63,309 bases of DNA from a virus. Its lineage: Duplodnaviria > Caudoviricetes. The notes beneath the pieces are model-generated. The model was not told the origin of the DNA, made no database searches, and saw only the letters and a program-made list of their open reading frames with translations. Each line of letters begins with the position of its first letter. The stretch's first letter is position 1. Positions 3,273 to 49,824 of the stretch are shown piece after piece. The stretch covers positions 1-63,309 of IMG/VR virus record IMGVR_UViG_3300006030_000029; one strand, written 5' to 3'. The position numbers and the translations under genes were made by a program.

Positions 3273-3835
3273 ACCAGAACGACATCAAGAAAATCCAGAG
3301 CAAAATCGGCGTCGAACCAGATGGTTTTTGGGGTCCGAAAAGCATCGCCGCCTGCCAAGCCTACTTGCGTAAGCTGATGCCAAAAACGAATCCTTGGCCC
3401 AAGGCAGACCAAGCAAGCCTTACCAAGTTCTATGGAGAACCGGGTGATGAGTCGCAACTGACGCCGCTAGCTGTTGCTGATTTGGGCATCCTTTACGATG
3501 GCAAGCCCGTCAAGATCATCCGATGCCACAAGAAGGTGGCGGCGAGTTTAAGGCGCATTCTGGAGGCCATCGCTGCCTCGCCACACAAACGCATCTTGGA
3601 AAAGTATGCTGGATGCTTCAACAACCGCAAAATGCGTGGAGGAAGCCTGCCTAGCTTGCATGCCCGTGGAGCCGCTGTTGACCTTGATCCTGATGACAAC
3701 GGCAATCTGGTTCCTTGGCCTACGCGAGCCACCATGCCGCTTGAGGTGATGGAAATCTTTGCCAAAGAGGGGTGGATTCCGGCAGGTGCTTTTTGGATTA
3801 GGGATGCAATGCATGCAGAAGCCACCAGATTCTAA
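3269..3835 (+). CDS. Endolysin: peptidoglycan-binding N-terminus plus M15 (L-Ala-D-Glu) peptidase
   Basis: 'IQSKIGVEPDGFWGPKS' PG-binding motif; SLHARGAAVD (SxHxxGxAxD) and DAMH zinc ligands. Confidence 0.85.
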   Translation: MNQNDIKKIQSKIGVEPDGFWGPKSIAACQAYLRKLMPKTNPWPKADQASLTKFYGEPGDESQLTPLAVADLGILYDGKPVKIIRCHKKVAASLRRILEAIAASPHKRILEKYAGCFNNRKMRGGSLPSLHARGAAVDLDPDDNGNLVPWPTRATMPLEVMEIFAKEGWIPAGAFWIRDAMHAEATRF

Positions 3836-4290
3836 CCCAAATGCTTGTGGCATTTAATACAAACTGGTTGAACATCATAGCGATTCTCAAATGAGTATCC
3901 CTTGTAATGATGATAGTGAGCTGCTTGCTCACCGCATTCAACACATGCCAAGCTAGTTGCTTTTGGCATTCTTCCAAATCTAACCCTTTGATTCACAAGT
4001 GCCCTTGCTTTAATTTTTTCGGGGTTATTTTGTCTGGCTTTTTGATTCCTAGCTTTAGCTACCTTTGCTCTCTTCTCGGGATTTTCAGAAACCCATTTAA
4101 TAGCCTGTTTGATTCTGTTGATGCGGTATCCAGCATCTTGAGAGTACCTCTTTTGGTGATAGATAGCATTGTATTTTTTAACGCATTCAAAGCACCTTGC
4201 TCTTTTTCCATACAAGCCACGCTTTTGTGATCCAAACATATTTAGGGATTTTTCAATCCCACAGCATGTGCATTTTTTTGATATTTCCAT
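3832..4290 (-). mobile_element. Free-standing HNH homing-endonuclease-like gene
   Basis: Zn-finger CxxC motifs and 'CVECG..AHYHH..YDVQPVCIKCH'; AT-rich and antisense to its neighbours. Confidence 0.75.
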
Positions 4291-4342
4291 TTTTGATTAT
4301 GGCGCACGCTGAATTTAAATGCAAGCACTTTCAAGCTACACA

Positions 4343-4513
4343 ATGACCAATCCCCCTCCAAAATGGATCATCGAAGGCAAAGAATTTGGCGTTTGGGAAA
4401 CCTTGGATGAAGCCGATTCCTACGAGGATGCTGTGATTCTAGCCAGCGTCCAATGTTCCAACCTGCCAGAGGATCGCATACGCATCAGCACGCCCGAGAA
4501 TGAGATTCTATGA
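4343..4513 (+). CDS. Hypothetical protein
   Basis: MTNPPPKW...; its ATG overlaps the TGA of the relic endolysin end. Confidence 0.55.
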   Translation: MTNPPPKWIIEGKEFGVWETLDEADSYEDAVILASVQCSNLPEDRIRISTPENEIL

Positions 4514-4701
4514 CCCCAATCGAACACCTCATGCAGGACTTCAACAAAACCGCTCCCGTTTGCCGCCAGCACAAGGAGCGGCCTCAGATCGGTTTTGACG
4601 GCGTGTGGTTTATCGAGTGCCCCAAAGGATGTTCAATGCACGATGGCGACAATCCGGGCGTCACGCCGATCATGGTTCGGTGGGTTGAGGAGATGAGGTA
4701 G
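4510..4701 (+). CDS. Small Cys-containing hypothetical protein
   Basis: ATGA-coupled; CxxH and CxxxC motifs. Confidence 0.55.
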   Translation: MTPIEHLMQDFNKTAPVCRQHKERPQIGFDGVWFIECPKGCSMHDGDNPGVTPIMVRWVEEMR

Positions 4702-5008: not shown

Positions 5009-6080
5009 ACCACCACCCTCCTTCCCAGCTTCTTAGGCTCAACCTTGGTGTGTAGATTCGTTTCCATGACAATCATTCCGGCCTCGGTCTTGTAAAAGTC
5101 CACGACGTATTTGCAGGCGATGCCTTGGTCAAGATTGCGCCGGATCAAACGTGCGGCCCTCTCAGGCTCAAACACGGATTCGTGGAGTCCTTCAATGATG
5201 GCGTCCTCTAGGGTTTGGTCTTCGTAGGTCATATCTTCTTCGGTATCCCCTGACCAAACACCAGCTTCGGCTTGCTTACAACCACTTTTGGAGCCTCAAT
5301 TTTAGGCTGCGGAATGCTGTAAGGCACGCGGTTATTTGCGGACCAAGCATGGAACGCCGTTGGAAACATGGCATCACCTGTGCAGAGGCAGCAGGTGTTC
5401 CACAAGGAACGCCCTGCGTTGTGGCAGGTGGGGCAGAGGTCAGGCATCACTTCCATTCATGGTTACAAAAAGGGCAATGCCAACTCCAATGGCGGTCGTT
5501 GCGAATTTCGCCAATAACCTTCGAGAAGTGTGTTTTATTCCCAAATAGATGCCGTGACTTTTCCGGTATCTCTTTGCCGGTCAGGTCGGCTTTGCACTTG
5601 GGGCAGGAGTAGGGTGTCATGTGTTTTTCTTCTTTTCGCAAAACATCTCACAAAGCCCATCAACCTCAGTCTCGTAAACGAATGGAAACTCAGCCCGAGT
5701 CTCTCCGTCCTTTGGAGGATTAGTCGTGATGGGCGCTAGGCAGACGTGACCCTTGCAGACTCCGGCGCGGCCTTTCAAGAGTCCTAGATGGATGCAGGAG
5801 TGGCAGGTATTCATATCCTTAACCTTACGCTTATTCGGATGGGCGGTCAAGGTTTGGTTGGGGTGCATGGTTTGCGCCATTGCTTTTTGGGGATTCCTCG
5901 CGGTCTTCTGCCTTTGCAGTCCATCAGTTCAGCGTAAAGCGCATCGCTGATTTCTTGGCCGATGAGTTGGTGCATCCAACCTTTGTGGAGGGGATACTGA
6001 AGACCGAGCGTGGCTATCTGCCGAGCGTTAGGCGCGTTACAGTTGAAAAGGGCCTCAAGTTTTTGTCGGGTTAGGGTCAT
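5005..6080 (-). CDS. Run of five small coupled hypothetical genes (5005-5232, 5229-5456, 5447-5620, 5617-5814, 5847-6080), several with CxxC motifs
   Basis: Mostly overlapping stop/start codons on the minus strand; CPTC, CPKC/CPFC and CHSC motifs. Confidence 0.55.
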
Positions 6081-16014: not shown

Positions 16015-19000
16015 ATGGCAACTTGGCATGAACTTACCCGCGATCCTGAATATCAGGCGCTGTCACAAAAAGCGAAAGCTCTTGTAAAACAGGGCTTTTT
16101 TCAGCAGCAAATTGCCAACGATCCCGAGTATCAATCCTTCTCTCCCGAGACGCAAAAGGCTATTGCCGATGATTTCTGGAATACCCCAGACGACACCGGC
16201 CAAGGCTACGTCTCGTCGATGCTTGGTTCTGCTGGACGTGGATTTGGCGAGATTGTGCCGGGAACCGTAACTGGCGTTGGCGCATTGCTTGGAAGTGAAG
16301 GTATTCAAGGCGCTGGCGAGTCTTTGCGAGAAGGCCTCGAATACATTGCTCCAGTGAACCCCATCTACCAAGATGACCTTGCCATGAAGGGAATGAATGT
16401 CCTTGGCACCGTTGGTAGCATTATGGCTACTGGTGGCATTGGTGGAGCAGCGGGTCGTGGATTGGCCGCCGAGGGTATTGCGGCAGCAGGAACGCAAGCT
16501 GCCAAGCAGGCTTTGGCACGCCAAGCTATCCAGCGTGGTGCTAGTAGTGCTCTTTACGGAACTGGATTTGCTCAAGGAGCCGCTCAAAAGGCAGAGGAAA
16601 ACAAACGTCTGGGAATGGAGGGGCCTGAAGCCTACCTCAACCTTATTGGCGGCGGTCTTTCCGAAGTATTGCCAGAAATGCTTCCGTTTGGCACTGCTCT
16701 TGAAACGGCTTCCGCTCGACGCATGCTTGGCGGAGTAGATGAGGCTGGCAAAGTGATTCCGGGTATTCGCATGAGCGCCGCCCAAGAAGCTCTTGAAGGT
16801 GGAACGACTCAATCTCTCAGCAACCTTTCGACTCAATTGACCGCTCCAGAAGGAGTGGAAACGCCGGGGCTTTTTGAAGGTTTTGGTGAGGCTGCTTTGT
16901 GGGAAGGTGTGGGAGGTTCCATGTTTGGTGCAATAAACAAACTTGGTCGCACTCCCTTAGATAAACAGACTGAAGCACAAAATCGTATCGCAACTGAAGC
17001 TGGGGCTATCCCAACGAATGCCGTTCCAGAACAGACCAACGAGCAAAAGCTGGCAGCAATGCAAGCTGGAGGAACCACGGTAGTTGACCCTGATGGTAAA
17101 ACGGCGGTTTTGGTTGAGCCGCCAAAGGTAGCGCCAACCGATCCCGGCATCCAAGCAGCGAAGGATTTGGTCACGCCCACCGCCGCTGTTCCCGGTGCTG
17201 AACAGACCGCCGTTCTCGCAGATGAGCAAATCCAGCAAAACGAAGACCTTGCCAAGAACATCGCCGCCTCGATGCCTGCACCGCCAACCGAGCCAACAGT
17301 TCAACCTGTCAAAACGGCTGAAGCGGTTGAGTCGGAAGTAACCGGCATTGAGCCAACATCATCCATTTCCGACTATGATGTGGACGAGGTGGCGGATACT
17401 TGGTTGTCAACTCAACCGAAAGGGATGGCTGAATCTATTGCGAAAAACGCACAACAAGCAGTCAATGAAAATAGACCGTTCTTTGGCGGTTTTGTTGATG
17501 AGAATGGCGATCTTGTGCTGGGGAGGTTTGCAGCTTACAGGCAAGCTCTAAGAAGGATTGGAAAGGATGTAGATATTAACAATCCCATTGGCGATCTTCA
17601 ACGATGGAAGAAATCTGGAGTCAAAAACTATCCAATCATTGATTATGTTCCGGCCCCCTTATCACAAATCTCCTCAGTAACACCTTCTCTGGAAACAGAG
17701 ATGCCTGAAAAGCCCTCGCAAACGATCACTGGCTCCAATGGCGAAATCGCGCCTGAAATGCCGGTGCAGCCCCAAGCTGGCGAGGCAATGGCTTTCCCTC
17801 CCGCTCCCTCCTTGCAAGAAGGTGGAAGCATTCTTGAGCGCGCGATCATCAACAATCCGCCAAGTGTTAGTCCGTTAATTCAACCCGCAACCCCACAAGA
17901 AAATGCCCCTGACCAAATCCCCGACACGGAAAGCCTTCGTCAAGAACCTGAAGACCGAGTTGAAAGCCGGGAAACCAAAAAAACAGGCGTTAGCGATCAG
18001 CTACTCAGTCCAGCGGCAGGCGAAGAAAAAGTAGCTGGCTCAAAAACACCAAAGGGTCAAATAGTTCACGTTCCCGGATGGGGTGATCGAATCCAAGGCG
18101 TTGAAAAAGGTTCTAAATTGAAATTGATTGACGGATCAATCGCTGATGGAACCGTTCTTGGAAGGTCTGTAAATGGCATGTTTGACATGTCAGACGGCAG
18201 TGTGATTGACACTTCTTTTGTAAGCGCCTTCAAACCAGCTGGCGAAAAAAGTTTTGTAAACGTGCTTAAAAAGCAACCAGCAACTTCAGGATTGGTTGAA
18301 GTGTCTGATTCAGAAAGAGGAGGAACTTGGTATGTTCCAAGGAATCAATGGGAATCTGAATCTAGCCTATTGGATCAAGTTGACCCAAATAACCCAACCA
18401 TTAGCAAGGCTATTAGGCCTCGCGATAAATTGCGTGAAGTTGTTGCCTCCAAGCCGCAACAACCAATCACCCCGCAAGGGACGCCGACGCCCGCTACCGA
18501 AGGCATGCCAACGTCGCGAGACGTGGGCACTTCATTTCAACCGGGGGCAACTGGCGAACCAGTTCAGGCAGCACCTCCTGCTGCACAGGCCGTGAAAGCG
18601 ACCGCCCCCGGACCTGTTTCGGGGAAAAAGCCAACTACTCTCGACCTTGCAAGGCAAGAGCTTGAGCAGGCACGCGGCGTTAAGCCCAACTGGGCACCCA
18701 AGGCCGAAAGGTTTGCCCAAATTTACGAGGGTGAGGATATTCGCCCCGAGATAGCCGCAAAAAATGGCGAGGCTCTGATGTCTGCCATTCAGAATAAGCA
18801 GTGGACCGATCTTCTTCATCCCGACAACAAGGTTTCTCGCAAAGTCTGGAAAGAGTGGACCGGCAAAGCTCTTCCGGCTGGACTCAAGGCATCTCAAAAA
18901 GCCTTCAAAGACTTCCTCGACGCGGCATATCCATCTTCCCAACAAACCACAGCAGCCGTAAAACAAACCCCAGCCCCCTCGCGAAAAGGGGCTGGGGCAG

Positions 19001-22000
19001 CCGGTGTTACTGAACGTCAGCCCTCGGGAGGGTCGATTCCCGAGGTTGCGTCAAGTGAAACACAAGAAACGCAGCCGTCAACTAAGGAAAATGACGCTGT
19101 TGCCAAGATTGATCGCCTAGTTTCCAGCGGTGCAAAGCCCGAGGAAATGGACAAGTTTGTGAAATCCTTGTCCGATGACGAGTTCAACGCTTTGGTCGAG
19201 AGCGAGGCATTCGATGTGGACACGAAGCTGGCAATCAAGCCAAAGGACACCTACGACGCCAAGCGTATCAAGCGCCGGAAGTTCGTTGACCAGATCAACG
19301 CCACGGCTGTCCAGTCCAAAAAGACAGCCGAGGAAATCTTCAAGGAGGAAGAAGCCGCTCTCGAACGCCAACGCAAGCTGGATGAGCGCATTCGTCAGTC
19401 CCTCAACTCCATCATCGACCCCGAAAAGACGAATATCGTCCAAGGCACCGTATCTGCCGCCGATGCCGAAGCTGCACGTCGCGTTCTTAACAACTCTGGC
19501 GAGATTCCAAACGCCTTCCTGACGCGCATCTACGCCTCACCCGAAGCCTTCTTGGCCGAGAAATCCAACCAGCGTTACTTCCCGTCCTCCTACGCACGCC
19601 TTCAAGCCGAGTCCAACATTGAAGGTCTTTTCGAGCGCGGTCAGACACTCATCTTCGCGAACAAGATCGGCGTTTCCGACTTGGACCGGCGCATTGGAGA
19701 AAACCTTGGCATCTCTCCCGAGCAAGCCGCAGCCCGTCGTGTGATTGCCCACGAAAACGGGCATCGCAGCGTGGCGCTGTTTACTGCCAGCGAGAAGCGC
19801 GAGTTTCTTGGCTACCTACGCCGCAAATACAATGACGCCCAAATCGACAACCTCGTTCGTGTTTACAGCGAGTATGCGGATTGGCGGACGAATCTTGAGA
19901 GCCGGAATGAGGCCTTGGAGGAGCTTTTCCTGAAGGACTTCGAGCGCCTTGAAAAGATTCCAACCGGAGGCATTTGGGACGACATCGTTCAATTCCTGAA
20001 GCGCGTCTGGCGTCGTCTGACCGGACGCAAAGGTGATCCTACGCTTCAAGACATGAAGGACGTGGTTCGTCTTTTGCGGAATGCCATGCGCCGGACTGCT
20101 GTTCCTAGCTTTACGACAAAGGATGGTGGCGACGTGAAGTTGAGCTACGCTGGCGAGAAGGCCATCGAGAACCTTCCCGAAGAACGTCGCCAGTTCATGC
20201 GCGATTCGCTGGATACCGCAAAGGCGATGGCTGCTGCTGGCAAAGATAGTGAAGAGATTCGCGCTGTGACTGGATGGTTCCCCGGCCCGTATGACGGGAA
20301 GATGCGGTGGGAAGTGCCGGACAACAAAGCCACAGAGTCTTTGGAGGGAACCTTTGCTGCTCGGTCAAACGCGAAAGAATCTAGCGAAGAGCAAAGACGA
20401 CGCTTGTATTTCAGCCATCCCAAAAATGTGCGTGAGTATGAGATTGAACCTTTCAAGGCTAGTTTCTTCGGTAAGAAAACGTATCGAGCTTACAAAAAAT
20501 ATGCCCCAATGGACAGCTTGCTGCGGTCCAATAGGGTTGATTTCTTAGAATCCGAACCTCTTGGAGTTTTTGCCACTGAGGCCGAGGCGCAGGCAGCGAT
20601 TGACCTTGACAAAGCTCAGTTTGAGTCGCGGAGAATGGAGGCAATTCGCAACACCTCATCTTTTGATATTCGCTTTAAGGATGTCCTTCAGCATCCCGAA
20701 CTGTTTGCAGCCTATCCAAAGTTTCAGAATGTTAAAGTCAGCATGGCTCCGGCCTTCTTTGACATCTTTCAAGGTGTTCAAGGATGGTATAACGATAAGA
20801 CGAACACCATCAATGTCACTCCGTATGCCAGCAACAAGCTATCCACGTTGCTGCATGAGATTCAGCACCTTATCCAAAACGAGGAAAACTTTGCTAGAGG
20901 CTCTAATCTAGATGAGGCATTTTCTGGTGTTTCTCAACAAGCAATCTTGGAAAAAGCAAAAGAGATAGCAGATTCGATTCGAGCACAGCAAGAGGTTCTG
21001 AAGGGATACATGCGGAACCGTCTGGCTGACCTTGATAGGGCTACCACTGCTGAAGAAAAAGAGATCGCAGATCGCGGCATTCAAACGATTGGAAAATGGT
21101 TCAATAGCGAACAAAAGACTTTAGAGGCTCTTGAGTCCGGTGATTTAGAAAAGATTTCCAATGTCGTCCAAAACCGTTATTCCGGCGAGTTCTATGAACG
21201 CGTAGCAGGCGAAATCGAAGCCCGAGATGTCCAAGCCCGTCAAAAGCTGACGCCCGAGCAGCGCAAGGCCATCGCGCCATACTCCAGCGAGAACATCGCC
21301 AAGGAAGATGCGATTGTGATGTTTGGTGGTGGCGGTGCTCAGATGAGCATGGCATCAATGTCATCTCAAGATGCCGAATACCTAGCTGCCTTGGAATCCG
21401 GCGACATGGAGAAGGCGCAGCGGATGGTCGATGAGGCGGCGAAGGCTGCTGGGTATGATACTGAGGTTTGGCATGGAACCGACGAAGATTTCACGGTATT
21501 CGGAGAGCAGAGGACTGCTTACGGGTTCTTTTTTGCACCAGATAAGCGAACCGCTGAGTATTATGGCCCTGCTCGTAAGTACAGCCTTCGCATTAACAAG
21601 CTAGCAGACTTAACTGACCCCGCTGTTTTTGATGAAGTGGCGGGCGAGGCTATTTGGTCAGACACTAAAGAGAGAAAAAAGGAAGACGTGGATGCTTGGA
21701 TCGAGTCGGTGGTTAAAGACACCCCGAACGGAAGGGCGTTTGCGGCTAACGCATTGGGCCTATCTGAGTCTGAGATGGCTGAATTCGAGTCGTTCGAGGA
21801 TATAATTTCTGAGCTTCAAAAGGAATGGGAGGGGGTCGTGGAAACCGTTGAGGCTGACTATCCCAAAGCACTCGAATCTCTCGACAAAGCAGCCCCACAG
21901 TTCAATCAAGAAGTCGAGGACGCTAGGCAAGCCCACGACAATCTTGAGCAGTCTTGGTATATGGAGTATCAAGATGACTTCATAAGGGCTGCACAAACTC

Positions 22001-25000
22001 TTGGTTATGACGGAGTGTTCATGTATGATCCAGCCGGAAGCACGGGTGGATCACCAGAGTCTTACGTCGTCTTCTCTCCCGAACAGATCAAATCCGCCGA
22101 CCCCGTTACCTACGGCGAAGCTGGAAACGTGATCCCGCTCTCACAGCGTTTCCAAGCCGCATCGCCAGACATCCGTTTCTCCCGCGTAGAATACGCCTCC
22201 GACTACTCCGCTGCATCCAGCGCAGGCGCACAGCTTGCCCGCGACACCATTTACGATGACCGAATCATCGAGATGCGCGATGCCATCCGTCGTGCCTACG
22301 AGGCCATGCCGAAGCCGAACAGTGTGGCGGTGCCGATTGGCGAGTTGTTCGCAAAGACCGAGGAACTGATGCCCGGCGTCACGCAGGACGAGTTCAGCAA
22401 CGTGCTTCAAGACCTGTTCGAGGACAACGGGGCGGTTTTGCAGGAGGGTGAGTCTGCTTTCGATGTATTCACCCCCGAAGGCCGTCGCGCAGGATTCGCT
22501 GTAATCATGCCGAAGCGTGCTGTGGCCTCGCGGGTTGAGACGGAAGGTGAGGCTGTAAAGAACTTCCAAGAAGAGATTGAGGCGATTGAGGGCAACTCTC
22601 TCAATGCTTTCTCGAAGGCTAGGCCAATGGAGGGCGCTGACGCTGAAATCTACACCGTTAAGCCTAGTAAATTCTACAAACAGGTCGCTAATGATTTCGT
22701 CAATAAGCTCATAGACGAAGGCAACTCGATTGAAAGCATCGGTGAATCCTTGTTCTCCGAAGATTTCCTTCAGGAAGTTGGCATCAAAAACAACATGCCA
22801 GCTTTGGTCATGCTTGTTGCCGTGGTCAAGGATCGCGTTTCTAAACAGTCCCGTGATACAAGCGATGGCGACACGGGCAATCTTCGCCGTGTGATCCTTC
22901 AAAAGCTGGATCGTAGACTGGCCGGTTACTGGCAGAACTTGGGGACCAACTCAGGCCGTGCTCAAGGTATTCGCAGCTACATTACCAAAAGCCCCGAGTT
23001 TAGCTGGATGTTCATCTTCGACAGGGCGAACGAAAACCTAGAGAAAGAAGGCAAGCTCGCCGCTGCCCGCGTTGCATCCGACCTGCCTCAGACCGCTGAC
23101 AACCTGCAAAAAACTGATGCCAAAGCTGGCGAAGATGCTGGTGAGCAGGTGGCGGATGATTTGGAAGATAATCAGGACGCGATTGATCTTGCCGAAGGTG
23201 AGGCAACTCTGGATCAAAAGGGCAAAACCCTTTGGGAGAAATTCAAAGACCTGATTCGTAAGCGTGGCATTGCCATGAGGGCTTTGAATGCCTTGCGTGC
23301 TGGCAATAAGGCAAAAGCCTCCATTTCCAGCGAGGAGCGGAATACCATCTCGCAAATGTCGGAGGAAGAGCTGGTTAAGTTCATCGCTGGCATCGACAAG
23401 GAAATGGCTGGTGTTTTTGACGAGTTCACCAAGACTCCAGCCACCCGCAAGAAGCGCGAAAAGATGGTCGCCACGGCCAAGAAGCGTGTGGAGCAGGGTA
23501 AGCCGATTGATGTTACATCGGTCAATACTGCGGATGTTATTGACGGAATATTCGTTGGCTTCAACGACCGCGAAAGCATAATCAATGAAGTTGGCGACAC
23601 TCTTCTCAAGGCTGCTGAACAACGCAAAGTTAAGCCGAAGCAGAAAACCGCCATTCAGGATTTGATCGCGGCAATCCGCCAAACTTTGACCGCCAACCTC
23701 AAAGGTGAGCAAATCAAAGCAGACCAACCTTCTCTTGGAAAGCTGCTTGGAAAAACCTTTGCTCAACAAGGAAGTGAGGCGGCATTGTTTGCTAAATCAT
23801 GGGAAGATGGCCGTAAAAAGGTTCGCGCCATGCTCGCTGAAATGGGTGTGGATGAGGCTAGTTTGGATGAAGAGCTTGATGCCATCATGCCGCCAACTCC
23901 AACCTTGGCTTATGCTCCTGCTGCCGCCAAGAAGGCAATCAACGTAGCCATCAAAGAGGCCGGACTCACACCTCAAGACGCCCTTTCTAATCCAGCTTTC
24001 TTCCGTGAATCCATCATGGCTAAGTTCAATGAGGCGGCTGAAAAGGATAACCTCACCGAAGAAGGATGGAATCAAAGCGGCAAGGCCTTGGCAGAAAAAG
24101 CCATCAACGAGTTCATTGACAACGCCAGAATCAAAGCTGAGAAACGCTCGGCAGAATCCAAGGCTAAGATGGAGAAAAGAAAGGTGGAGATTGCCGACAA
24201 AAGGGCGTCTCAACTCATCTACTCTGTCGAAGAGCGATTCCGCCAAGGCGAAAAAGACCTTCAGACTTCAAAGAGTGGAGACTCGATTAACAAAGCCTTC
24301 CGCGATCAGGTTAAAGACCCGGTTTCAAAATTCGAGTTCTTCCAGCGCCTAGCCAAGTTGAATGTGTCTCAGAATGTGTCTGAGCACCTTTTTAGAACAG
24401 CCGCACGCGAGAAGGCAGACCTAAAAGCAATGGAGGCATTCCGCCGCCTTGAAGGGCCAAATGCGCTGCAAACCATGCAGCGTGAAATCTCCGCGCTTCG
24501 TCCCGGCGAGCAGGCTCCATTCTCCAAGCAAATCCCGTGGCGCAAGCTGCTCTCCCAAAAGGCAGCTACGGTCAAGATTTACCGCCAGCGCATCTTCGAC
24601 ACCATATCGTCTGAGGAATCCTTTGCCGACCTTGACGATGCTCAAAAGGCCAAACTGGCAGACCTGTTGACGAAAGCATGGGAATCCAAGCGTGAAGCGA
24701 TCTTGGACCGCATGGTTAAGAATGTCATCAATCAAGAGCAAGCCGCTGGACGCCTCACCAAAGAAGGCGCTGACGCCCTCCGTTCACAGCGTCAAAAGCT
24801 GGTCGAGGACATTAACCTTGGCATCCTTGACGAGGACCGCCTGATGAAGCATCTCGCAGACAAGTTCGGCATCAAGTCGGAGTTCACCGAGGCCGAGCGA
24901 GCCAATATCGACCGCCTTCTCGACATCCTCCAAGACGACAAACTCAACGAGGTGAAGCGCAACAAGGCTGGCTATGAGCTTCTTGAGGCTCTGAGTTCGG

Positions 25001-27003
25001 CCGCGAAGATTCCAATCGCCAAATTGCTCGCTGATTACTGGGTGTCCTCCGTGCTTTCCGGCGTCAATACAGCGGCATCTATTGCAATGGCTGTGATGAG
25101 CGGTGGTTACGAGCTTACGACCGGCGCATTCCGCATACTCCGTGCCGGATTCACCAATCCGAAGGAACTCCCGGCTGAAATTGCAGCTTCGTTCAAGGCG
25201 ATGGCAGAGTTCCTCAAGGCATTCGGTCGTGAAGGCCGTCTGGCATGGCAGTATCTCGTCACTGGCGACCGGGCGTTCCTTGATCCTTCGATGAACACGG
25301 TCCTGAACGACCTGAATTACGACAGCATCGGCAAGACGGTTTCGCTGGCCGAAAAGATGGCGAAGTCCGACAAGATCATGCAGCGCGTGATGGGTATCTG
25401 GATGCGCTCTGTGAGTCGCCTTCTGACCGCTCTGGACTCGTTCAACAGCGGAGTGACGAAAGCTGGGGCGTTGCCTATTGTTTTCCGCCAACTCAATCTG
25501 GACGCGGAAAGCCTGAAGCAGGCCACCGAGAAATATAATCTCCAGCTTTACCGAGACAGGGTAATCCAGCGTGACTTTAACGGAAACAAACCAACCACAG
25601 CGCACGACAAGGCATTAGTGGACTCCTACGCCAAGGCTGAAATGATGGCAGACCTTCAAGAGTTCGGCAAATTCAGCGAGAACGCCGACTTCTTTGGTCA
25701 GCAAGGCGCGATGACTCTTGATCCGACTGGCGTTGGCGGATTCATCTACTCATCCATCAAGTCATTCACAGGTGGAGCAACCAACCGTGCTGACAAGTTC
25801 CTCGCCGAAGCTGAACTCGAATGGAAGCAAGCTGATGGCGCAGACAAGACGGCCAAAGGTCTTCAGCTTGCATTCGCCTACTTCCTTCAGTTTGGAGCCT
25901 ACAACATCGCAAACTTGGCTGGCCTTCGCTTCGCACGTTTCGCTGGAAACAAGTTCAACCAAGGATTGAGCTTCATTCCGGGGATTGGGATGCTTCGCAT
26001 GTATGAGGCGACGGTCAAAGATTCCAAGATCGAAGCCAAAGAAGCCTTCACCGACATGATTCTGCGTAATCAGACGGCTGGCCTTCTCTTTGCTATAATC
26101 GGTGGAATGGCAATTAAAGCCATCATGGACGAGCCTGACGACGAGAAGCGTGGATTTTTCTGGAACGGCGGATGGGCAAACCTCACACCGGATCGCAAGC
26201 AACAGAAGCTCGCAGCCGGTCAGAAGGAATACACCATCGGTATTCCCGGAGGTATTTCATTCAACTACCAAAACTGGCCTATCTCGCCCATCATGGCCGC
26301 GATTGGAAGCCTCTCCGACCTTGTTCGCTTCTCTCCCGAACAATGGAACGAGAAGTCCATCGCCGACCGATTGGTTTCGGCTGCCGCATCTGGCGTGTTT
26401 TCTGCCGGTGAAATTCCCGCTCTCTCCGGCTTCCAGACCCTTTTCGGCAACAACCTGTCCTCCAAAGACCCGAACGAGAAGCGCCTTGACCGATTCGCTA
26501 AGGTGATGGCTGGATGGGGTGGAGGCTTCGTGCCTCGCATCCTCAAGGACATCGACTTTATGGCCGATCCGGGGCTGCGTAAATACGAATCACTTTGGGA
26601 GCAAACAGCGTCTCATATCCCAGTTTACCGCCGCTACTCAGGCGAGGAATACTACGACATCCTCGGCAAGCAGATTGAGCGCAAGGTCTGGCCGGGATCG
26701 CGTGAGTTTATGGAGCTTGAAAGCGCCCCTGAATACCGCACTCTCGGCAAGCTAAACAGCCGTGGAATCTGGCTTACTCCCGCCAACGCCGAGCACCGCA
26801 TGGTGGGTAAGGGCCGATTCAAGCGCAAATTAACACAGGAAGAGGCTGATGCCTACTCGCTGGAAACCGGCAAGGGCTACCGCCAGATGCTACTTCGCTA
26901 CGGCAGTCGTCTTGAACAGATGCCGACAGAGCGTGCCCGCGCCTTCCTGATGGACAAAGCTGACGAGGTGCGTGACCGTGCGTTGCAGAAGATCACACGA
27001 TGA
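16015..27003 (+). CDS. Giant (3662 aa) polyvalent DNA-ejection protein with zincin peptidase(s), LPD23-like and ART-PolyVal-like domains
   Basis: Gly/Ala-rich N-terminus; HENGH; 'TGWFPGPYDGKMRWEVPD'; 'LLHEIQHLIQ...GEIEARDV'; 'VWHGT..F..F...GFFF...GYDGV...YVVFSPEQIKSADPVTY...IPLSQRF'. Confidence 0.8.
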   Translation: MATWHELTRDPEYQALSQKAKALVKQGFFQQQIANDPEYQSFSPETQKAIADDFWNTPDDTGQGYVSSMLGSAGRGFGEIVPGTVTGVGALLGSEGIQGAGESLREGLEYIAPVNPIYQDDLAMKGMNVLGTVGSIMATGGIGGAAGRGLAAEGIAAAGTQAAKQALARQAIQRGASSALYGTGFAQGAAQKAEENKRLGMEGPEAYLNLIGGGLSEVLPEMLPFGTALETASARRMLGGVDEAGKVIPGIRMSAAQEALEGGTTQSLSNLSTQLTAPEGVETPGLFEGFGEAALWEGVGGSMFGAINKLGRTPLDKQTEAQNRIATEAGAIPTNAVPEQTNEQKLAAMQAGGTTVVDPDGKTAVLVEPPKVAPTDPGIQAAKDLVTPTAAVPGAEQTAVLADEQIQQNEDLAKNIAASMPAPPTEPTVQPVKTAEAVESEVTGIEPTSSISDYDVDEVADTWLSTQPKGMAESIAKNAQQAVNENRPFFGGFVDENGDLVLGRFAAYRQALRRIGKDVDINNPIGDLQRWKKSGVKNYPIIDYVPAPLSQISSVTPSLETEMPEKPSQTITGSNGEIAPEMPVQPQAGEAMAFPPAPSLQEGGSILERAIINNPPSVSPLIQPATPQENAPDQIPDTESLRQEPEDRVESRETKKTGVSDQLLSPAAGEEKVAGSKTPKGQIVHVPGWGDRIQGVEKGSKLKLIDGSIADGTVLGRSVNGMFDMSDGSVIDTSFVSAFKPAGEKSFVNVLKKQPATSGLVEVSDSERGGTWYVPRNQWESESSLLDQVDPNNPTISKAIRPRDKLREVVASKPQQPITPQGTPTPATEGMPTSRDVGTSFQPGATGEPVQAAPPAAQAVKATAPGPVSGKKPTTLDLARQELEQARGVKPNWAPKAERFAQIYEGEDIRPEIAAKNGEALMSAIQNKQWTDLLHPDNKVSRKVWKEWTGKALPAGLKASQKAFKDFLDAAYPSSQQTTAAVKQTPAPSRKGAGAAGVTERQPSGGSIPEVASSETQETQPSTKENDAVAKIDRLVSSGAKPEEMDKFVKSLSDDEFNALVESEAFDVDTKLAIKPKDTYDAKRIKRRKFVDQINATAVQSKKTAEEIFKEEEAALERQRKLDERIRQSLNSIIDPEKTNIVQGTVSAADAEAARRVLNNSGEIPNAFLTRIYASPEAFLAEKSNQRYFPSSYARLQAESNIEGLFERGQTLIFANKIGVSDLDRRIGENLGISPEQAAARRVIAHENGHRSVALFTASEKREFLGYLRRKYNDAQIDNLVRVYSEYADWRTNLESRNEALEELFLKDFERLEKIPTGGIWDDIVQFLKRVWRRLTGRKGDPTLQDMKDVVRLLRNAMRRTAVPSFTTKDGGDVKLSYAGEKAIENLPEERRQFMRDSLDTAKAMAAAGKDSEEIRAVTGWFPGPYDGKMRWEVPDNKATESLEGTFAARSNAKESSEEQRRRLYFSHPKNVREYEIEPFKASFFGKKTYRAYKKYAPMDSLLRSNRVDFLESEPLGVFATEAEAQAAIDLDKAQFESRRMEAIRNTSSFDIRFKDVLQHPELFAAYPKFQNVKVSMAPAFFDIFQGVQGWYNDKTNTINVTPYASNKLSTLLHEIQHLIQNEENFARGSNLDEAFSGVSQQAILEKAKEIADSIRAQQEVLKGYMRNRLADLDRATTAEEKEIADRGIQTIGKWFNSEQKTLEALESGDLEKISNVVQNRYSGEFYERVAGEIEARDVQARQKLTPEQRKAIAPYSSENIAKEDAIVMFGGGGAQMSMASMSSQDAEYLAALESGDMEKAQRMVDEAAKAAGYDTEVWHGTDEDFTVFGEQRTAYGFFFAPDKRTAEYYGPARKYSLRINKLADLTDPAVFDEVAGEAIWSDTKERKKEDVDAWIESVVKDTPNGRAFAANALGLSESEMAEFESFEDIISELQKEWEGVVETVEADYPKALESLDKAAPQFNQEVEDARQAHDNLEQSWYMEYQDDFIRAAQTLGYDGVFMYDPAGSTGGSPESYVVFSPEQIKSADPVTYGEAGNVIPLSQRFQAASPDIRFSRVEYASDYSAASSAGAQLARDTIYDDRIIEMRDAIRRAYEAMPKPNSVAVPIGELFAKTEELMPGVTQDEFSNVLQDLFEDNGAVLQEGESAFDVFTPEGRRAGFAVIMPKRAVASRVETEGEAVKNFQEEIEAIEGNSLNAFSKARPMEGADAEIYTVKPSKFYKQVANDFVNKLIDEGNSIESIGESLFSEDFLQEVGIKNNMPALVMLVAVVKDRVSKQSRDTSDGDTGNLRRVILQKLDRRLAGYWQNLGTNSGRAQGIRSYITKSPEFSWMFIFDRANENLEKEGKLAAARVASDLPQTADNLQKTDAKAGEDAGEQVADDLEDNQDAIDLAEGEATLDQKGKTLWEKFKDLIRKRGIAMRALNALRAGNKAKASISSEERNTISQMSEEELVKFIAGIDKEMAGVFDEFTKTPATRKKREKMVATAKKRVEQGKPIDVTSVNTADVIDGIFVGFNDRESIINEVGDTLLKAAEQRKVKPKQKTAIQDLIAAIRQTLTANLKGEQIKADQPSLGKLLGKTFAQQGSEAALFAKSWEDGRKKVRAMLAEMGVDEASLDEELDAIMPPTPTLAYAPAAAKKAINVAIKEAGLTPQDALSNPAFFRESIMAKFNEAAEKDNLTEEGWNQSGKALAEKAINEFIDNARIKAEKRSAESKAKMEKRKVEIADKRASQLIYSVEERFRQGEKDLQTSKSGDSINKAFRDQVKDPVSKFEFFQRLAKLNVSQNVSEHLFRTAAREKADLKAMEAFRRLEGPNALQTMQREISALRPGEQAPFSKQIPWRKLLSQKAATVKIYRQRIFDTISSEESFADLDDAQKAKLADLLTKAWESKREAILDRMVKNVINQEQAAGRLTKEGADALRSQRQKLVEDINLGILDEDRLMKHLADKFGIKSEFTEAERANIDRLLDILQDDKLNEVKRNKAGYELLEALSSAAKIPIAKLLADYWVSSVLSGVNTAASIAMAVMSGGYELTTGAFRILRAGFTNPKELPAEIAASFKAMAEFLKAFGREGRLAWQYLVTGDRAFLDPSMNTVLNDLNYDSIGKTVSLAEKMAKSDKIMQRVMGIWMRSVSRLLTALDSFNSGVTKAGALPIVFRQLNLDAESLKQATEKYNLQLYRDRVIQRDFNGNKPTTAHDKALVDSYAKAEMMADLQEFGKFSENADFFGQQGAMTLDPTGVGGFIYSSIKSFTGGATNRADKFLAEAELEWKQADGADKTAKGLQLAFAYFLQFGAYNIANLAGLRFARFAGNKFNQGLSFIPGIGMLRMYEATVKDSKIEAKEAFTDMILRNQTAGLLFAIIGGMAIKAIMDEPDDEKRGFFWNGGWANLTPDRKQQKLAAGQKEYTIGIPGGISFNYQNWPISPIMAAIGSLSDLVRFSPEQWNEKSIADRLVSAAASGVFSAGEIPALSGFQTLFGNNLSSKDPNEKRLDRFAKVMAGWGGGFVPRILKDIDFMADPGLRKYESLWEQTASHIPVYRRYSGEEYYDILGKQIERKVWPGSREFMELESAPEYRTLGKLNSRGIWLTPANAEHRMVGKGRFKRKLTQEEADAYSLETGKGYRQMLLRYGSRLEQMPTERARAFLMDKADEVRDRALQKITR
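17903..18034 (+). CDS. 43-aa basic protein nested in the +1 frame of the giant gene
   Basis: MPLTKSPTRKAFVKNLKTELKAGKPKKQALAISYSVQRQAKKK*, matching the pattern of a widespread small phage protein family ('MPL..S....F..N...E..AGKP.KQA.AI.YS'). Confidence 0.7.
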   Translation: MPLTKSPTRKAFVKNLKTELKAGKPKKQALAISYSVQRQAKKK

Positions 27004-47802: not shown

Positions 47803-47868
47803 ATTGCCTGTGTTAGTGCGTAAATGTTTACATCTGTTTACGCTGGAGTCAATTTATAGCCTATGCGC

Positions 47869-47897
47869 TTGACCCAACCCTCCCTCCACCATATAGT
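47869..47897 (+). promoter_or_regulatory. Sigma70-like promoter driving the XRE gene and cassette array
   Basis: TTGACC-N17-TATAGT. Confidence 0.65.
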
Positions 47898-47912
47898 TAA
47901 TCGCAACACAAT

Positions 47913-48215
47913 ATGAACCTCCCCAACATCCAGTCCCAACACCCGTTCATTCACACTGAGTTTGTTTGCGCCTCCAATCTTGAGAGCCAAGCTGCCGAAC
48001 TGCTAAAAAAAGCCAATCAAACGCGCATCAACGCCCTTGAACAACTCCGCATGCAGCAAGGCTGGTCAAAAAGCCACCTTGCCAAGGTGATTGGTTTCCA
48101 GCCTCAGTTCATCTTCCGCATTTTGCAGGGTAAGTATCCCATGAAGGAGTGTTACTTGGAAAAAGTGGATGCGGGGTTGAACAACCAAGGCCAGCCACCG
48201 GAGGGCACCCGATGA
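47913..48215 (+). CDS. XRE-family HTH protein; C-terminal residues encoded by attC site 1
   Basis: 'LRMQQGWSKSHLAKVIGFQPQFIFRILQG'; ends NNQGQPPEGTR* inside the hairpin. Confidence 0.75.
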   Translation: MNLPNIQSQHPFIHTEFVCASNLESQAAELLKKANQTRINALEQLRMQQGWSKSHLAKVIGFQPQFIFRILQGKYPMKECYLEKVDAGLNNQGQPPEGTR

Positions 48216-48273
48216 CTCCCGATCTACCAGAAGCGTCCGCGCCCGGAGGTTGCGCTGCGCCGACTGGTTCTGC
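48176..48273 (-). mobile_element. attC-type recombination site 1
   Basis: + strand: GTTGAAC-N6-GGC CAGC CA CC ... GG(T)TG(C)GCTG(C)GCC-N5-GTTCTGC, with three extrahelical bases. Confidence 0.75.
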
Positions 48274-48640
48274 GCTGGACCTTGCGCTCGCGCTGCTGGC
48301 CGTCTCTCCGGCCCGAGGCCGGGAATCGCTGCCGTGGGTGCAGGCTGGCATGGCGCTGTCTCCGCACTGCCGGGAGAATGAAAACGTCACCGAGGCCGCG
48401 CTGCGGATCGTCGCTGAGTCGCGGGAATGGTATCGCCGCCGCGTCGCATTGCTGGGCCGCGCGCAAAAGCACATGCGCGATCCCGAGCGGACGCTGGTGT
48501 GCGACATCCTGGCCAACGGTCAACTGCTGCCCGATCCGAACGGCGAGCGATACGGCTTTCCGACCACGGGCAACGAGCATGCGCAGAACGCAATAGCTGT
48601 GGCACCGCCGACACAAGACTCCAACGAAGAAGCAAAATGA
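48212..48640 (+). CDS. Cassette gene 1, hypothetical (142 aa)
   Basis: Starts in the attC1 loop (GGAGGG...ATGA) and stops in the attC2 loop; visibly GC-richer than the flanks. Confidence 0.7.
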   Translation: MTPDLPEASAPGGCAAPTGSALDLALALLAVSPARGRESLPWVQAGMALSPHCRENENVTEAALRIVAESREWYRRRVALLGRAQKHMRDPERTLVCDILANGQLLPDPNGERYGFPTTGNEHAQNAIAVAPPTQDSNEEAK

Positions 48641-48701
48641 GTGATACCCTAAAACTCGAAGAATCCGCAGGTGGCGGTTGTCCACCAGCGACTTGTTCTG
48701 C
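48583..48701 (-). mobile_element. attC-type recombination site 2
   Basis: + strand: GCAGAAC-N6-GCT GTGG CA CCGCC ... GGCGG(T)TG(T)CCAC(C)AGC-N5-GTTCTGC; same bulge geometry as site 1. Confidence 0.85.
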
Positions 48702-48966
48702 GTATTCCGAAAATCTCGAACCGTGCCGTATGCGCGAGGGAGGAGTTCCTGAGTTCGATGGCACCCGGTGGGAAAGTGGAATGCACCTCATGGGTGATCT
48801 GGTAGCGGAACGTCTCCCGGAGCCGTGCTGGATTCGGAACGGACGATCAGCAATGAAGATCGACATTGGGGAAAGCCGCATCATGGGGCGTGGGATCATG
48901 CTCGGCTACGATGTGACTGAATTTTCGCAGAACACCAAGCTCTCCGACGCGCAGCGTTCGGAGTAG
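48637..48966 (+). CDS. Cassette gene 2, hypothetical (109 aa)
   Basis: Starts in the attC2 loop (ATGA overlap) and stops inside attC3. Confidence 0.7.
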   Translation: MSDTLKLEESAGGGCPPATCSAYSENLEPCRMREGGVPEFDGTRWESGMHLMGDLVAERLPEPCWIRNGRSAMKIDIGESRIMGRGIMLGYDVTEFSQNTKLSDAQRSE

Positions 48967-48980
48967 CGCCACGGTTCTCC
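48927..48980 (-). mobile_element. attC-type recombination site 3 (short)
   Basis: + strand: GCAGAAC-N5-GCT CTCCGA CGC-GCA-GCG(T)TCGGAG(T)AGC-N6-GTTCTCC; 3 bp/bulge/6 bp/bulge, like attC aadA7. Confidence 0.75.
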
Positions 48981-49018
48981 TCTTGCCATCCCCTCAAATT
49001 ACCGTAAGTATCGCCTAA

Positions 49019-49237
49019 ATGGCATACCCTCCCAAGAACCTCAAAGGCCGTCGCTTTGGCCGTCTGAAAGTCGTCAGCTTCCTTGAACGCAATGAGCACT
49101 CCAACTCCAAATGGCTTTGTCGCTGCGACTGTGGCAAGGAAACCGAGGCTTTCTACCAACACCTCACCCGTGGCGAAAAGAAGTCGTGCGGGAAATGCGG
49201 GTTGGTGAAGCGAGGGGTTAAACCGAAGAAGAAATGA
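49019..49237 (+). CDS. Second stand-alone HNH-associated Zn-ribbon module
   Basis: 'LKGRRFGRLKV...WLCRCDCG...SCGKC'; paralogue of 44702-44914. Confidence 0.75.
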   Translation: MAYPPKNLKGRRFGRLKVVSFLERNEHSNSKWLCRCDCGKETEAFYQHLTRGEKKSCGKCGLVKRGVKPKKK

Positions 49238-49416
49238 ACCACCAACTCGCCACCCCTAAATCCGAGTCCGAACGCCGCGAGGAGCGTCGTAGCTTCCAGC
49301 AGCTTCACCCCGGCAATCGTTTTCGGCTGATGGCCGGACTGTCGATGTTACCTGAAAAGGAACCACGACCTGTGAATGAACGTGTTGCGATCCGGTAAAT
49401 TCGAGTATTCTCCCTC

Positions 49417-49824
49417 ATGGACTCTCTCATCACCCAGCTTCGCGCCCTTCAATTCCTAGCTCATCGGGCGCACAACGTCATCAAAGGACCGACTTTCTTC
49501 GAGGACCATGAGTTCCTTGGCGAGCTTTACCCGGCCTACGAAGCAGCTTACGACAGCGCCGTGGAGCGTGTGATTGGTCTCGGAACTGAGAAGTTGAGCC
49601 TCGCCAAGATTAACATCGCAGCGTCCAAGATGTCCGACATCCTGCCTGACGAGACGAAGCCCGAGCCTTTCTTCCGCGCCATTCTTAAAGGCGAGAAAGA
49701 CCTGTGCGTGATGATTGATGAGGCGGTGAAAAAGGCCTCGCAAGGCACTCAGAACTTGCTTCAAGGAATCTGCGATCAAAGTGAGATGCGCCAATACCAG
49801 TTGAAACAGCGTCTTTCCGCTTGA
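49417..49824 (+). CDS. Dps/ferritin-like protein
   Basis: 'HRAHNVIKG..FFEDHEFLGELY.....YDSAVER', a Dps-like ferroxidase pattern. Confidence 0.75.
   Translation: MDSLITQLRALQFLAHRAHNVIKGPTFFEDHEFLGELYPAYEAAYDSAVERVIGLGTEKLSLAKINIAASKMSDILPDETKPEPFFRAILKGEKDLCVMIDEAVKKASQGTQNLLQGICDQSEMRQYQLKQRLSA

Follow-up and report, generated by a model that had tools for sequence, protein, structure and literature searches.

The 3' end of a resident phage gene in the virus record IMGVR_UViG_3300006030_000029 (Duplodnaviria; Caudoviricetes) is occupied by two integron-type gene cassettes, each made up of an attC recombination site and one open reading frame (ORF). The window, i.e. the whole stretch of DNA that was analysed, is the complete 63,309-bp record, which has a completeness rating of 100%. 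The resident gene (positions 47913–48215, + strand) encodes a helix-turn-helix protein for which the XRE-like call is weak, with Pfam HTH_31/HTH_3 matches under the gathering cut-offs and a PHROG 1373 match with an E value of 1.3e-5. It is followed on the same strand by ORF1 (48212–48640, 142 amino acids) and ORF2 (48637–48966, 109 amino acids). An in-frame Asn codon AAC is found in each of the three (48180–48182 in the resident gene, 48587–48589 in ORF1 and 48931–48933 in ORF2), and they stop on TGA (48213–48215), TGA (48638–48640) and TAG (48964–48966), respectively. ATGA stop/start overlaps at 48212–48215 and 48637–48640 chain the resident gene, ORF1 and ORF2 in the geometry of a coupled operon, and the N-termini of the two ORFs read ...GGCAAPTGSA... 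and ...GGCPPATCSA.... The ORFs, AAC codons, stops, overlaps and N-termini had been listed in a preliminary description of this DNA, and all of them were verified at these positions. Across 48200–48500 the G+C content climbs from about 0.5 to 0.6–0.7. Directly 5' of the resident gene a consensus scan alone located a promoter-like site (TTGACC, 17 nt, TATAGT; 47869–47897, + strand; 10 of 12 positions matching), which is present with identical sequence in a related phage (L008) lacking the cassettes, and no terminator-like site was found on the + strand from the resident gene to position 49500. Judged from its sequence and position, this promoter-like site likely drives the whole array.

The limits of the insert were obtained by comparison with sister phages, whose terminases are 93–94% identical and which were mapped onto the region; further records were found using the resident protein as query. 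In two of the sister phages (L008 and L010) the site is empty, since positions 47867–48182 and 48930 onward of the window are contiguous in them, and the resident gene ends with its native tail, ...N(A/T)QLSDAQ(R/S)SE. A different single unit of 392 nt is inserted at the same AAC in L009, two attC matches are present at the same site in L039, one cassette in L040 and one attC match in L041/L045. In total, the site is empty in 2 of the 8 records that could be evaluated, and 5 distinct arrays occupy it in the others (the truncated L044 was left out of the count, and L042 and L043 duplicate the records L009 and L010). Two freshwater metagenomes provided additional joints. In a 24.6-kb contig of run X7, position 48581 is joined to 48926, with 8 letters at the joint fitting both sides, so that exactly 344 nt are skipped; in a contig of run X5, the same 344-nt unit is followed by a different attC-like arm. 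From the empty-site phages and the metagenome joints, the insert was delimited to 48182–48932, and it consists of cassette Y (48182–48588, + strand, 407 nt), which contains its own attC followed by the ORF1 body, and cassette X (48589–48932, + strand, 344 nt), with its own attC followed by the ORF2 body. The left junction of cassette Y comes from the empty-site comparison, and the right one from the abrupt end of homology at AA|C together with the run X7 joint. As seen in L008, L010 and run X7, the cassettes are present or absent as wholes, with crossovers at the AAC/GTT triplet.

The point of insertion is thus the Asn codon AAC located 11 codons before the stop of the resident gene. The resident gene is phage-derived up to Asn 48180–48182, its last 11 codons and stop (48183–48215) come from the attC of cassette Y, and the last 11 codons of ORF2 are the native tail of the resident gene. 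It had been proposed that the resident protein takes its C-terminus from the first attC site and that the crossover lies at the coding-strand AAC, with an alignment of XRE homologues suggested as a check. This alignment was made: the homologues diverge exactly past Asn 48180–48182 and none of seven relatives keeps the tail found in the window, which differs from the native tail of L008 and L010. Both proposals are therefore upheld, the second one by the empty-site comparisons and the run X7 joint as well. These comparisons establish the cassettes, their boundaries and their mobility. The cassette lengths, 407 and 344 nt, are both 2 modulo 3, and hence in an excised circle each ORF would run once around the circle and stop on the TGA overlapping its own ATG.

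A hand-made scan for AAC...GTT hairpins was too noisy, and a covariance model (R1) was used in its place. R1 was built from 13 aligned hairpin sites of L001, L002, L005, L006 and L009, excluding the window. Its consensus fold contains 20 pairs, 14 of which show compensatory changes, and the AAC and GTT are kept in all 13 sequences. When R1 was run over the whole window, on both strands and with filters off, only two significant matches were obtained, both on the + strand (next best, E 0.59). Site 1 (48176–48273, 98 nt; 39.0 bits, E 2.5e-8) has the 5' R box GTTGAA|C, of which the part up to 48181 is phage DNA, and the 3' box GTTCTGC; its loop contains GGAGGG 8 nt 5' of the ATG and the ATGA of 48212–48215, where ORF1 starts. 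Site 2 (48583–48701, 119 nt; 45.6 bits, E 4.5e-10) has the boxes GCAGAA|C and GTTCTGC, and its loop holds the ATGA of 48637–48640, at which ORF1 ends and ORF2 starts. In both sites the + strand is the recombining bottom strand (see below). The two sites align to R1 end to end, including the AAC and the GTT, and the long-range hairpin of site 2 is present in both the minimum free energy and the centroid structures. An L box, an unpaired central spacer, a variable loop and conservation of structure over sequence, all of them characteristic of attC hairpins, are found in the R1 consensus and in the fold of site 2, and the lengths of 98 and 119 nt fall within the published attC range of 57–141 bp. 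In the window as a whole there are 8 copies of the 8-mer GTTCTGCG or its complement, where 2.75 would be expected (none of 100 shuffles reaches 8), and 4 of these 8 copies, counting either strand, lie within 48267–48933.

Outside the window, R1 matched 10 sites in the genome G002, 6 in G001, 3 in G003, 1 in G004 and 2 in G005. The G002 locus L002 encodes a 336-amino acid protein that scores 280.7 bits on the TIGR02249 integron-integrase model (cut-off 265), with a homologue of ORF1 located about 900 bp from it. Because the same model matches the window and the G002 array beside this integrase, sites 1 and 2 are, on covariance and linkage, members of the integron-associated attC family, in agreement with the attC identity given to them in the preliminary description. 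Two results speak against this assignment. The folding energy of sites 1 and 2 is no better than that of shuffled sequences (z +0.33 to −0.80), so the case for them rests on the covariance model and the comparisons instead; and neither an integron integrase nor any tyrosine recombinase was found in the window, for which reason the enzyme is assumed to act in trans. The lack of an integrase would also be expected if the units were some other palindromic mobile element or recombination hot spot resembling attC, such as a miniature inverted-repeat transposable element (MITE)-like repeat or a homing element. We consider this highly improbable: the same repeat family forms a regular array beside a gene scoring above the integron-integrase cut-off, the units are sized for single ORFs, the junctions fall at the AAC triplet leaving a precise empty site, and the base pairs covary.

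Several of these related arrays deserve a short description. G002 is a phage-like record of 56.8 kb (92% complete), which shows weak collinear similarity to the window and contains a 5176-amino acid ORF. Its counterpart in the window is a single ORF of 3662 amino acids (16015–27003), and the similarity between the two ORFs is in patches. The G002 integrase lies at 5126–6136 of L002 (= G002:C1:16128–17138) and the array in G002:C1:17738–23151, with at least 12 attC matches; its ORFs, several of which encode DNA methyltransferases, point towards intI. In the complete 73.8-kb phage G003, which has terminal repeats, three attC matches occupy L038 7162–7870 (= G003:C1:25161–25869), the last of them 53 nt long, and ATGA overlaps occur at both upstream junctions. 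Five attC matches and a short ORF1 homologue were found at L047 7043–8843, in a 4.2-Mb Verrucomicrobiae contig, with an integrase-like gene about 13 kb away on the same strand (241.9 bits, below the cut-off of 265); this locus may be a prophage or a chromosomal array. Finally, the loops of three otherwise unlike attC sites (L016 1357–1470, L018 2435–2564 and L030 1501–1612) share the 8-nt overlap ATGAATAA, at which the new ORF begins MNK and the stop of the incoming ORF is TAA.

The coding (+) strand is the recombining bottom strand, which is the reverse of canonical cassettes. In attC sites the AAC of the 5' box is cut between A and C, and extrahelical bases on the other arm mark the bottom strand (Nivina et al. 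2016). Four lines of evidence led to this assignment: a constant hairpin is present at the right end of every array, with insertion taking place at the 5' AAC of the hairpin; the extra unpaired bases are on the 3' arm of the + strand (4 versus 2 in the R1 consensus); the G002 array abuts the 5' end of intI with its ORFs aimed at it; and both protein families are conserved across the GTT box into the body, with a sharp break after the Asn. The strand is established by these four lines, and since the + strand is the coding one while the bottom strand recombines, each cassette is an "attC, then ORF body" unit, the mirror image of the textbook one; a top-strand ORF followed by attC was not what was found. 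The canonical top-strand reading, with a crossover at the 3' GTT, was rejected, as it predicts the first hairpin in the empty phages, and the third one was found in L008 and L010. Regarding the coding strand, the differences between ORF2 and its L007 homologue are distributed 3/3/29 over the three codon positions, and the substitutions between ORF1 and its L002 homologue 7/3/22. Minus-strand ORFs (e.g. 48224–48685 and 48387–48899) were also considered as real genes and discarded, because of this codon-position pattern and because they straddle the cassette boundary.

In the window, the constant hairpin at the right end spans 48927–48981 (+ strand, 55 nt), positions 48933 onward being phage DNA. 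The empty sites of L008 and L010 contain it as well, and all of the arrays have it at their right end. In the preliminary description it had been counted as the third cassette attC site; there are only two, the third being resident DNA that the empty-site phages already possess. Likewise, the first insertion had been supposed to hit an attG-like GTT site, and the hairpin found in that place is conserved and attC-like, and at least five arrays have used it. In its fold, a 5-nt spacer separates an R box ending in AA|C from a 12-bp stem, which is closed by a 3-nt loop and carries two bulged T residues, six pairs apart, on the 3' arm; a 4–6-nt spacer and the GTT come next. For comparison, published attC bottom-strand spacers are 5–6 nt, loops go down to 3 nt and lengths range over 57–141 bp (Nivina et al. 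2016). The landing-site hairpin folds better than shuffled sequences (z −2.27; 3 of 200 shuffles equal it). The 28-nt stem-loop carries 0–1 differences in six relatives, in which the body of the XRE gene is 79–83% identical (94% in one), and its 9 codons show no synonymous change in five of the six. A comparable site of 53 nt closes the array of the unrelated complete phage G003, where it scores 29.8 bits.

On these features of its sequence, we interpret the landing site as a minimal target of attC-like type, not as a bare secondary site. The opposite view would be that a bare (attG-like) site was used and that the hairpin is unrelated to recombination, being an RNA stability element or simply tail coding sequence; the arrays would then all go back to a single rare insertion, after which cassettes were exchanged between attC sites or precisely lost. 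Integron integrases are known to insert cassettes into secondary sites (Loot et al., bioRxiv 10.1101/2022.09.11.507474), and exchange and excision after a first insertion could yield all the states seen. Two further observations tell against an attC-like target. The landing site is not significant with R1 (9.4, 11.4 and 13.3 bits; E 1.6, 0.31 and 0.096), the copy in the window (48927–48980) being the tenth-ranked match with 9.4 bits and E 1.6, and at 55 nt it is slightly under the published length range. Against the bare-site view stand the attC-like layout (inverted AAC/GTT, spacers of 5 and 4–6 nt, 3-nt loop and bulges on the bottom-strand arm), the near-invariance of the stem-loop at synonymous positions too, in a gene whose body is far less conserved, and the similar site ending the G003 array; moreover, attG sites are described as differing strongly from att sites, in structure as well as in sequence (Loot et al., bioRxiv 10.1101/2022.09.11.507474). 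Use of a bare site is, hence, distinctly unlikely in our judgement. That the landing site is reused, by at least five different arrays, follows from the sequences found at its AAC, and we are highly confident that both the cassettes and the landing site are real.

The reading phase across the crossover was counted at 47 junctions, i.e. 42 R1 matches from 12 records plus 5 right-hand landing-site junctions, taking the longest ORF of at least 60 amino acids ending near each site; duplicate loci, matches cut by locus ends and three weak matches were left out. On the model strand, 35 junctions were read through in phase 0, with the AAC in frame, 2 in phase 1 (both ambiguous) and none in phase 2. 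At the rest, the ORF stopped on a TAA inside the R box (4) or upstream (4), or the AAC was absent from the expected position (2). Grouping by blastp family gave 26 in phase 0, 2 in phase 1, 0 in phase 2, 4 R-box stops and 4 upstream stops. The opposite strand, used as control, showed no ORF at 23 junctions, an upstream stop at 10, and read-through in 6, 4 and 4 cases for the three phases. By our own arithmetic, the binomial probability of at least 26 of 28 in one given phase, at one third each, is about 7e-11, a figure that overstates independence because attC ancestry is common to the families. The random AAC phase that would have contradicted the proposal of a frame-locked site did not occur.

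The protein families behave in the same manner. Among the 19 sequences of the ORF2 family, the core mostly ends with ...EFSQN, followed by unrelated tails of 1–20 residues; in the ORF1 family (27 of the 98 matches aligned) it ends with ...CRPN or ...RYGQN, again followed by unrelated tails. The tails of the homologues past the Asn being unrelated, the swappable C-terminal tails postulated earlier are confirmed. The starts of ORF1 and ORF2 inside attC hold as well, as both families are conserved from the 3' GTT box onward and lack a conserved Met downstream of it. The fixed phase and the exchange of tails are established by these data. In L039, the last cassette (3814–4557) reads in frame via ...CATAAC into the native tail. 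The ORF2 homologue of L007 (3890–4243) has a Cys-rich N-terminal extension in place of the attC-encoded start and ends with ...QNA; it adjoins the apparent 3' end of a tRNA gene, and four attC matches (118–1527) are located about 2.4 kb from it on the opposite strand.

Some features of the phase count weigh against a general rule. It leans on the longest ORF ending near each site, and the DNA is rich in G+C; two rounds of classification disagreed on one row (G003 7162); and the cassette families share attC-arm ancestry and are not fully independent. We nevertheless hold that the fixed phase is very probably a real, family-wide rule. Whether it has a function is a separate matter. The cassettes and their insertion could be real and the fixed phase a by-product, without function, of extreme compaction, with ORFs that extend to the last bases of the cassette, and of the shared descent of the attC arms: in two phases a stop is provided by the R box (TAAC, TGAAC) or by the spacer (..GGTGA..), and only the third reads on to the loop. 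Accordingly, four junctions terminate on TAA within the R box, phase 1 reaches a TGA about 4 codons past the AAC in many sites, and the N-termini and tails encoded by attC are predicted to be disordered and are not conserved. Random use, however, predicts about one third each in phases 1 and 2, stopping in or soon after the R box, and by family there are 26 in phase 0, 6 in phase 1 (the 4 box stops plus the 2 read-through cases) and 0 in phase 2.

The geometry of stops and starts bears on the same question. A candidate next start was available at 30 phase-0 cassette junctions; stop and start overlap in 15 of them, and in 8 the overlap is exactly 4 nt (7 ATGA and 1 TTGA), these eight being spread across 5 of the records examined; in 25 of the 30 the start lies within −20 to +11 nt. 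If the phase were a by-product, stops on or within a few bases of the next start would be expected far less often than this. In the remaining 5 junctions there is no nearby start, the closest candidate being 18–103 nt away, a result that fits the by-product account and tells against coupling being universal; the cassette ORF of L009, which starts about 80 nt past its attC, and eight junctions with a stop of their own do the same for universal coupling. The design described at first, with the start in the loop on an ATGA, is therefore frequent, as the eight 4-nt overlaps demonstrate, and it is not universal, since the L009 ORF starts elsewhere and the last cassette of L041 carries its own stop. 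An additional weakness is that the RNA run X19 covers just 48974–49253 and none of the cassettes. In AlphaFold2 models, ORF1 has a confident helical core, with a predicted local distance difference test (pLDDT) value below 50 for residues 1–15 and 119–139, and ORF2 a confident core, with values below 50 for residues 1–23, 101–104 and 107–109. The attC-encoded N-termini and the borrowed tails are thus predicted to be disordered, and the cores to be folded with confidence.

It has been reported that attC stem-loops block ribosomes and that short ORFs in attI or attC relieve the block by termination-reinitiation (PMC8876359). Considering this background and the stop/start overlaps, we lean slightly towards a fixed phase that serves translational coupling, and the account of it as a functionless by-product seems to us unlikely.

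Taken as a whole, the explanation that we regard as likely is the insertion of cassettes by an integrase acting in trans at a phage landing hairpin, forming a chain that is read through in frame. The landing site for cassettes would be the conserved attC-like hairpin of 55 nt that an early helix-turn-helix gene carries close to its 3' end, and an integron integrase, supplied by the host or by a co-infecting phage such as G002, which encodes one, would recombine cassettes into it, with the crossover at the AA|C of the 5' R box of the hairpin, i.e. at the Asn codon of the resident gene. Each ORF would begin in the unpaired loop of its own attC and be translated through the 3' arm. Having no stop of its own, the cassette ORF would pass the crossover with the AAC in frame and terminate in the loop of the next attC on the ATGA that is the next start, and the last ORF would end on the native tail of the resident gene. 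The fixed phase would constitute a shared interface: a ribosome arriving in that phase may open up the 5' arm of the hairpin and pass on to the following start through termination-reinitiation, so that the promoter in front of the resident gene could drive expression of the cassettes in any order.

A broader picture can be put forward only tentatively, and we judge it somewhat less probable than not. A group of freshwater phages might run an integron of inverted grammar, in which a resident ORF, read from a phage promoter, carries a minimal attC in its final codons and receives stop-less cassettes coding on the recombining strand. Each attC would be a standard translational interface, entered with the AAC in frame and followed by a stop that overlaps the next start. 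If this is true, cassettes would fit at every position of an array, and also at the coding end of any other phage gene with such a site; the integrase would come from some of these phages (G002), and the cassette pool would include anti-defence genes, for instance those of DNA methyltransferases.

As for the cargo, no Pfam or PHROG family was found for ORF1 or ORF2, no relationship between the two was detectable (E 5.0), and a Foldseek search of their models against solved structures gave no match at E <= 0.001, the best being a YefM-like one (E 1.5) and another with E 3.5. In the databases, 98 relatives of ORF1 and 19 of ORF2 were retrieved, nearly all of them unnamed. In homologues from other viral contigs the similarity is restricted to the central part of each protein, and in the case of the L007 protein homology to ORF2 is limited to residues 21–100. 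Homologues of ORF1 were also found in metagenome-assembled genomes labelled Planctomycetota, Verrucomicrobiae, Proteobacteria and Rhodocyclaceae. DNA methyltransferases are carried by the arrays of G002 and L039; the last cargo of L039 (247 amino acids) has, in our reading of its sequence, C5-methyltransferase-like motifs.

Downstream of the array, about 180 nt with a 54-amino acid ORF (window 49234–49412) are present in the window and L008, and about 32 nt occupy this place in L009 and L010; the ORF upstream of this indel stops on a TGA inside ..ATGAAC... The indel was checked as a further cassette, and neither an attC match nor an AAC junction was found in it. A DNA search of the region against deposited phage genomes gave no match, and no relatives were found using the neighbouring 241-amino acid protein as query.

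Integron cassettes are usually seen as promoterless genes with a non-coding recombination site behind them, read from one promoter, and the expression of arrays past the first positions is still debated. In the arrays described here the recombination site is itself coding, and a fixed phase would make the cassettes interchangeable in translation as well as in DNA. The empty, singly filled and doubly filled sister genomes show that phages keep a dedicated cassette landing site inside a gene, which is a concrete route for them to sample accessory genes, methyltransferases included. The system is small and easily tested, and it could help to explain how cassettes arise from the joining of an ORF to an attC.

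Clusters of attC sites lacking an integrase (CALIN) are a defined class (Cury et al. 2016), and both integrons and CALIN have been reported in phages (Qi et al. 2023, PMC9892861). The window conforms to the definition of CALIN, as it contains two significant sites plus the landing site and no integrase in its 63-kb genome. The phage arrays of PMC9892861 share with the present ones the phage-borne attC sites without a nearby integrase, as well as methyltransferase cargo, found here in L039 and G002, and in that work it is likewise proposed that phages draw on the cassette pool. They differ in that those cassettes are oriented "as typical of bacterial arrays", whereas coding is on the bottom strand here, and the section on phage cassettes of PMC9892861 describes no in-gene landing site, no empty and filled sister genomes and no in-frame crossover, all of which were seen in this study. 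A literature search of limited coverage, without supplementary files, retrieved no account of bottom-strand cassettes in a fixed frame, of swapped C-terminal tails or of an in-gene attC-like landing site.

With respect to insertion at attG (Loot et al., bioRxiv 10.1101/2022.09.11.507474), the likeness lies in cassettes located outside an integron, expressed when near a resident promoter and excisable. The target described here, unlike attG, is structured, conserved and reused by at least five arrays, and the features of attG were not found in it. In the systems with ORF-11 at attI1 or with short ORFs in attC (PMC8876359), the upstream frame also stops within or beside the recombination site that the incoming cassette brings; there, the stop is that of a short top-strand ORF, either a leader or one inside attC, and falls in the GTTRRRY box, and in the present arrays full-length cassette proteins cross the site on the bottom strand, in one phase, and exchange their C-terminal tails. 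The canonical integron resembles the phage locus in having a promoter, one fixed site and a variable array of single-ORF cassettes organized as an operon, and its crossover, between A and C of the bottom-strand AAC, is the same (Nivina et al. 2016). Unlike it, the phage locus has no intI in cis, and its fixed site is attC-like, not attI-like, and placed inside a coding sequence; the canonical order "ORF then attC" is replaced with "attC then ORF", with the ORFs on the recombining strand and, in G002, facing intI. Clusters of attC sites in phages had already been published, and it is the coding grammar of the cassettes that appears to be new.

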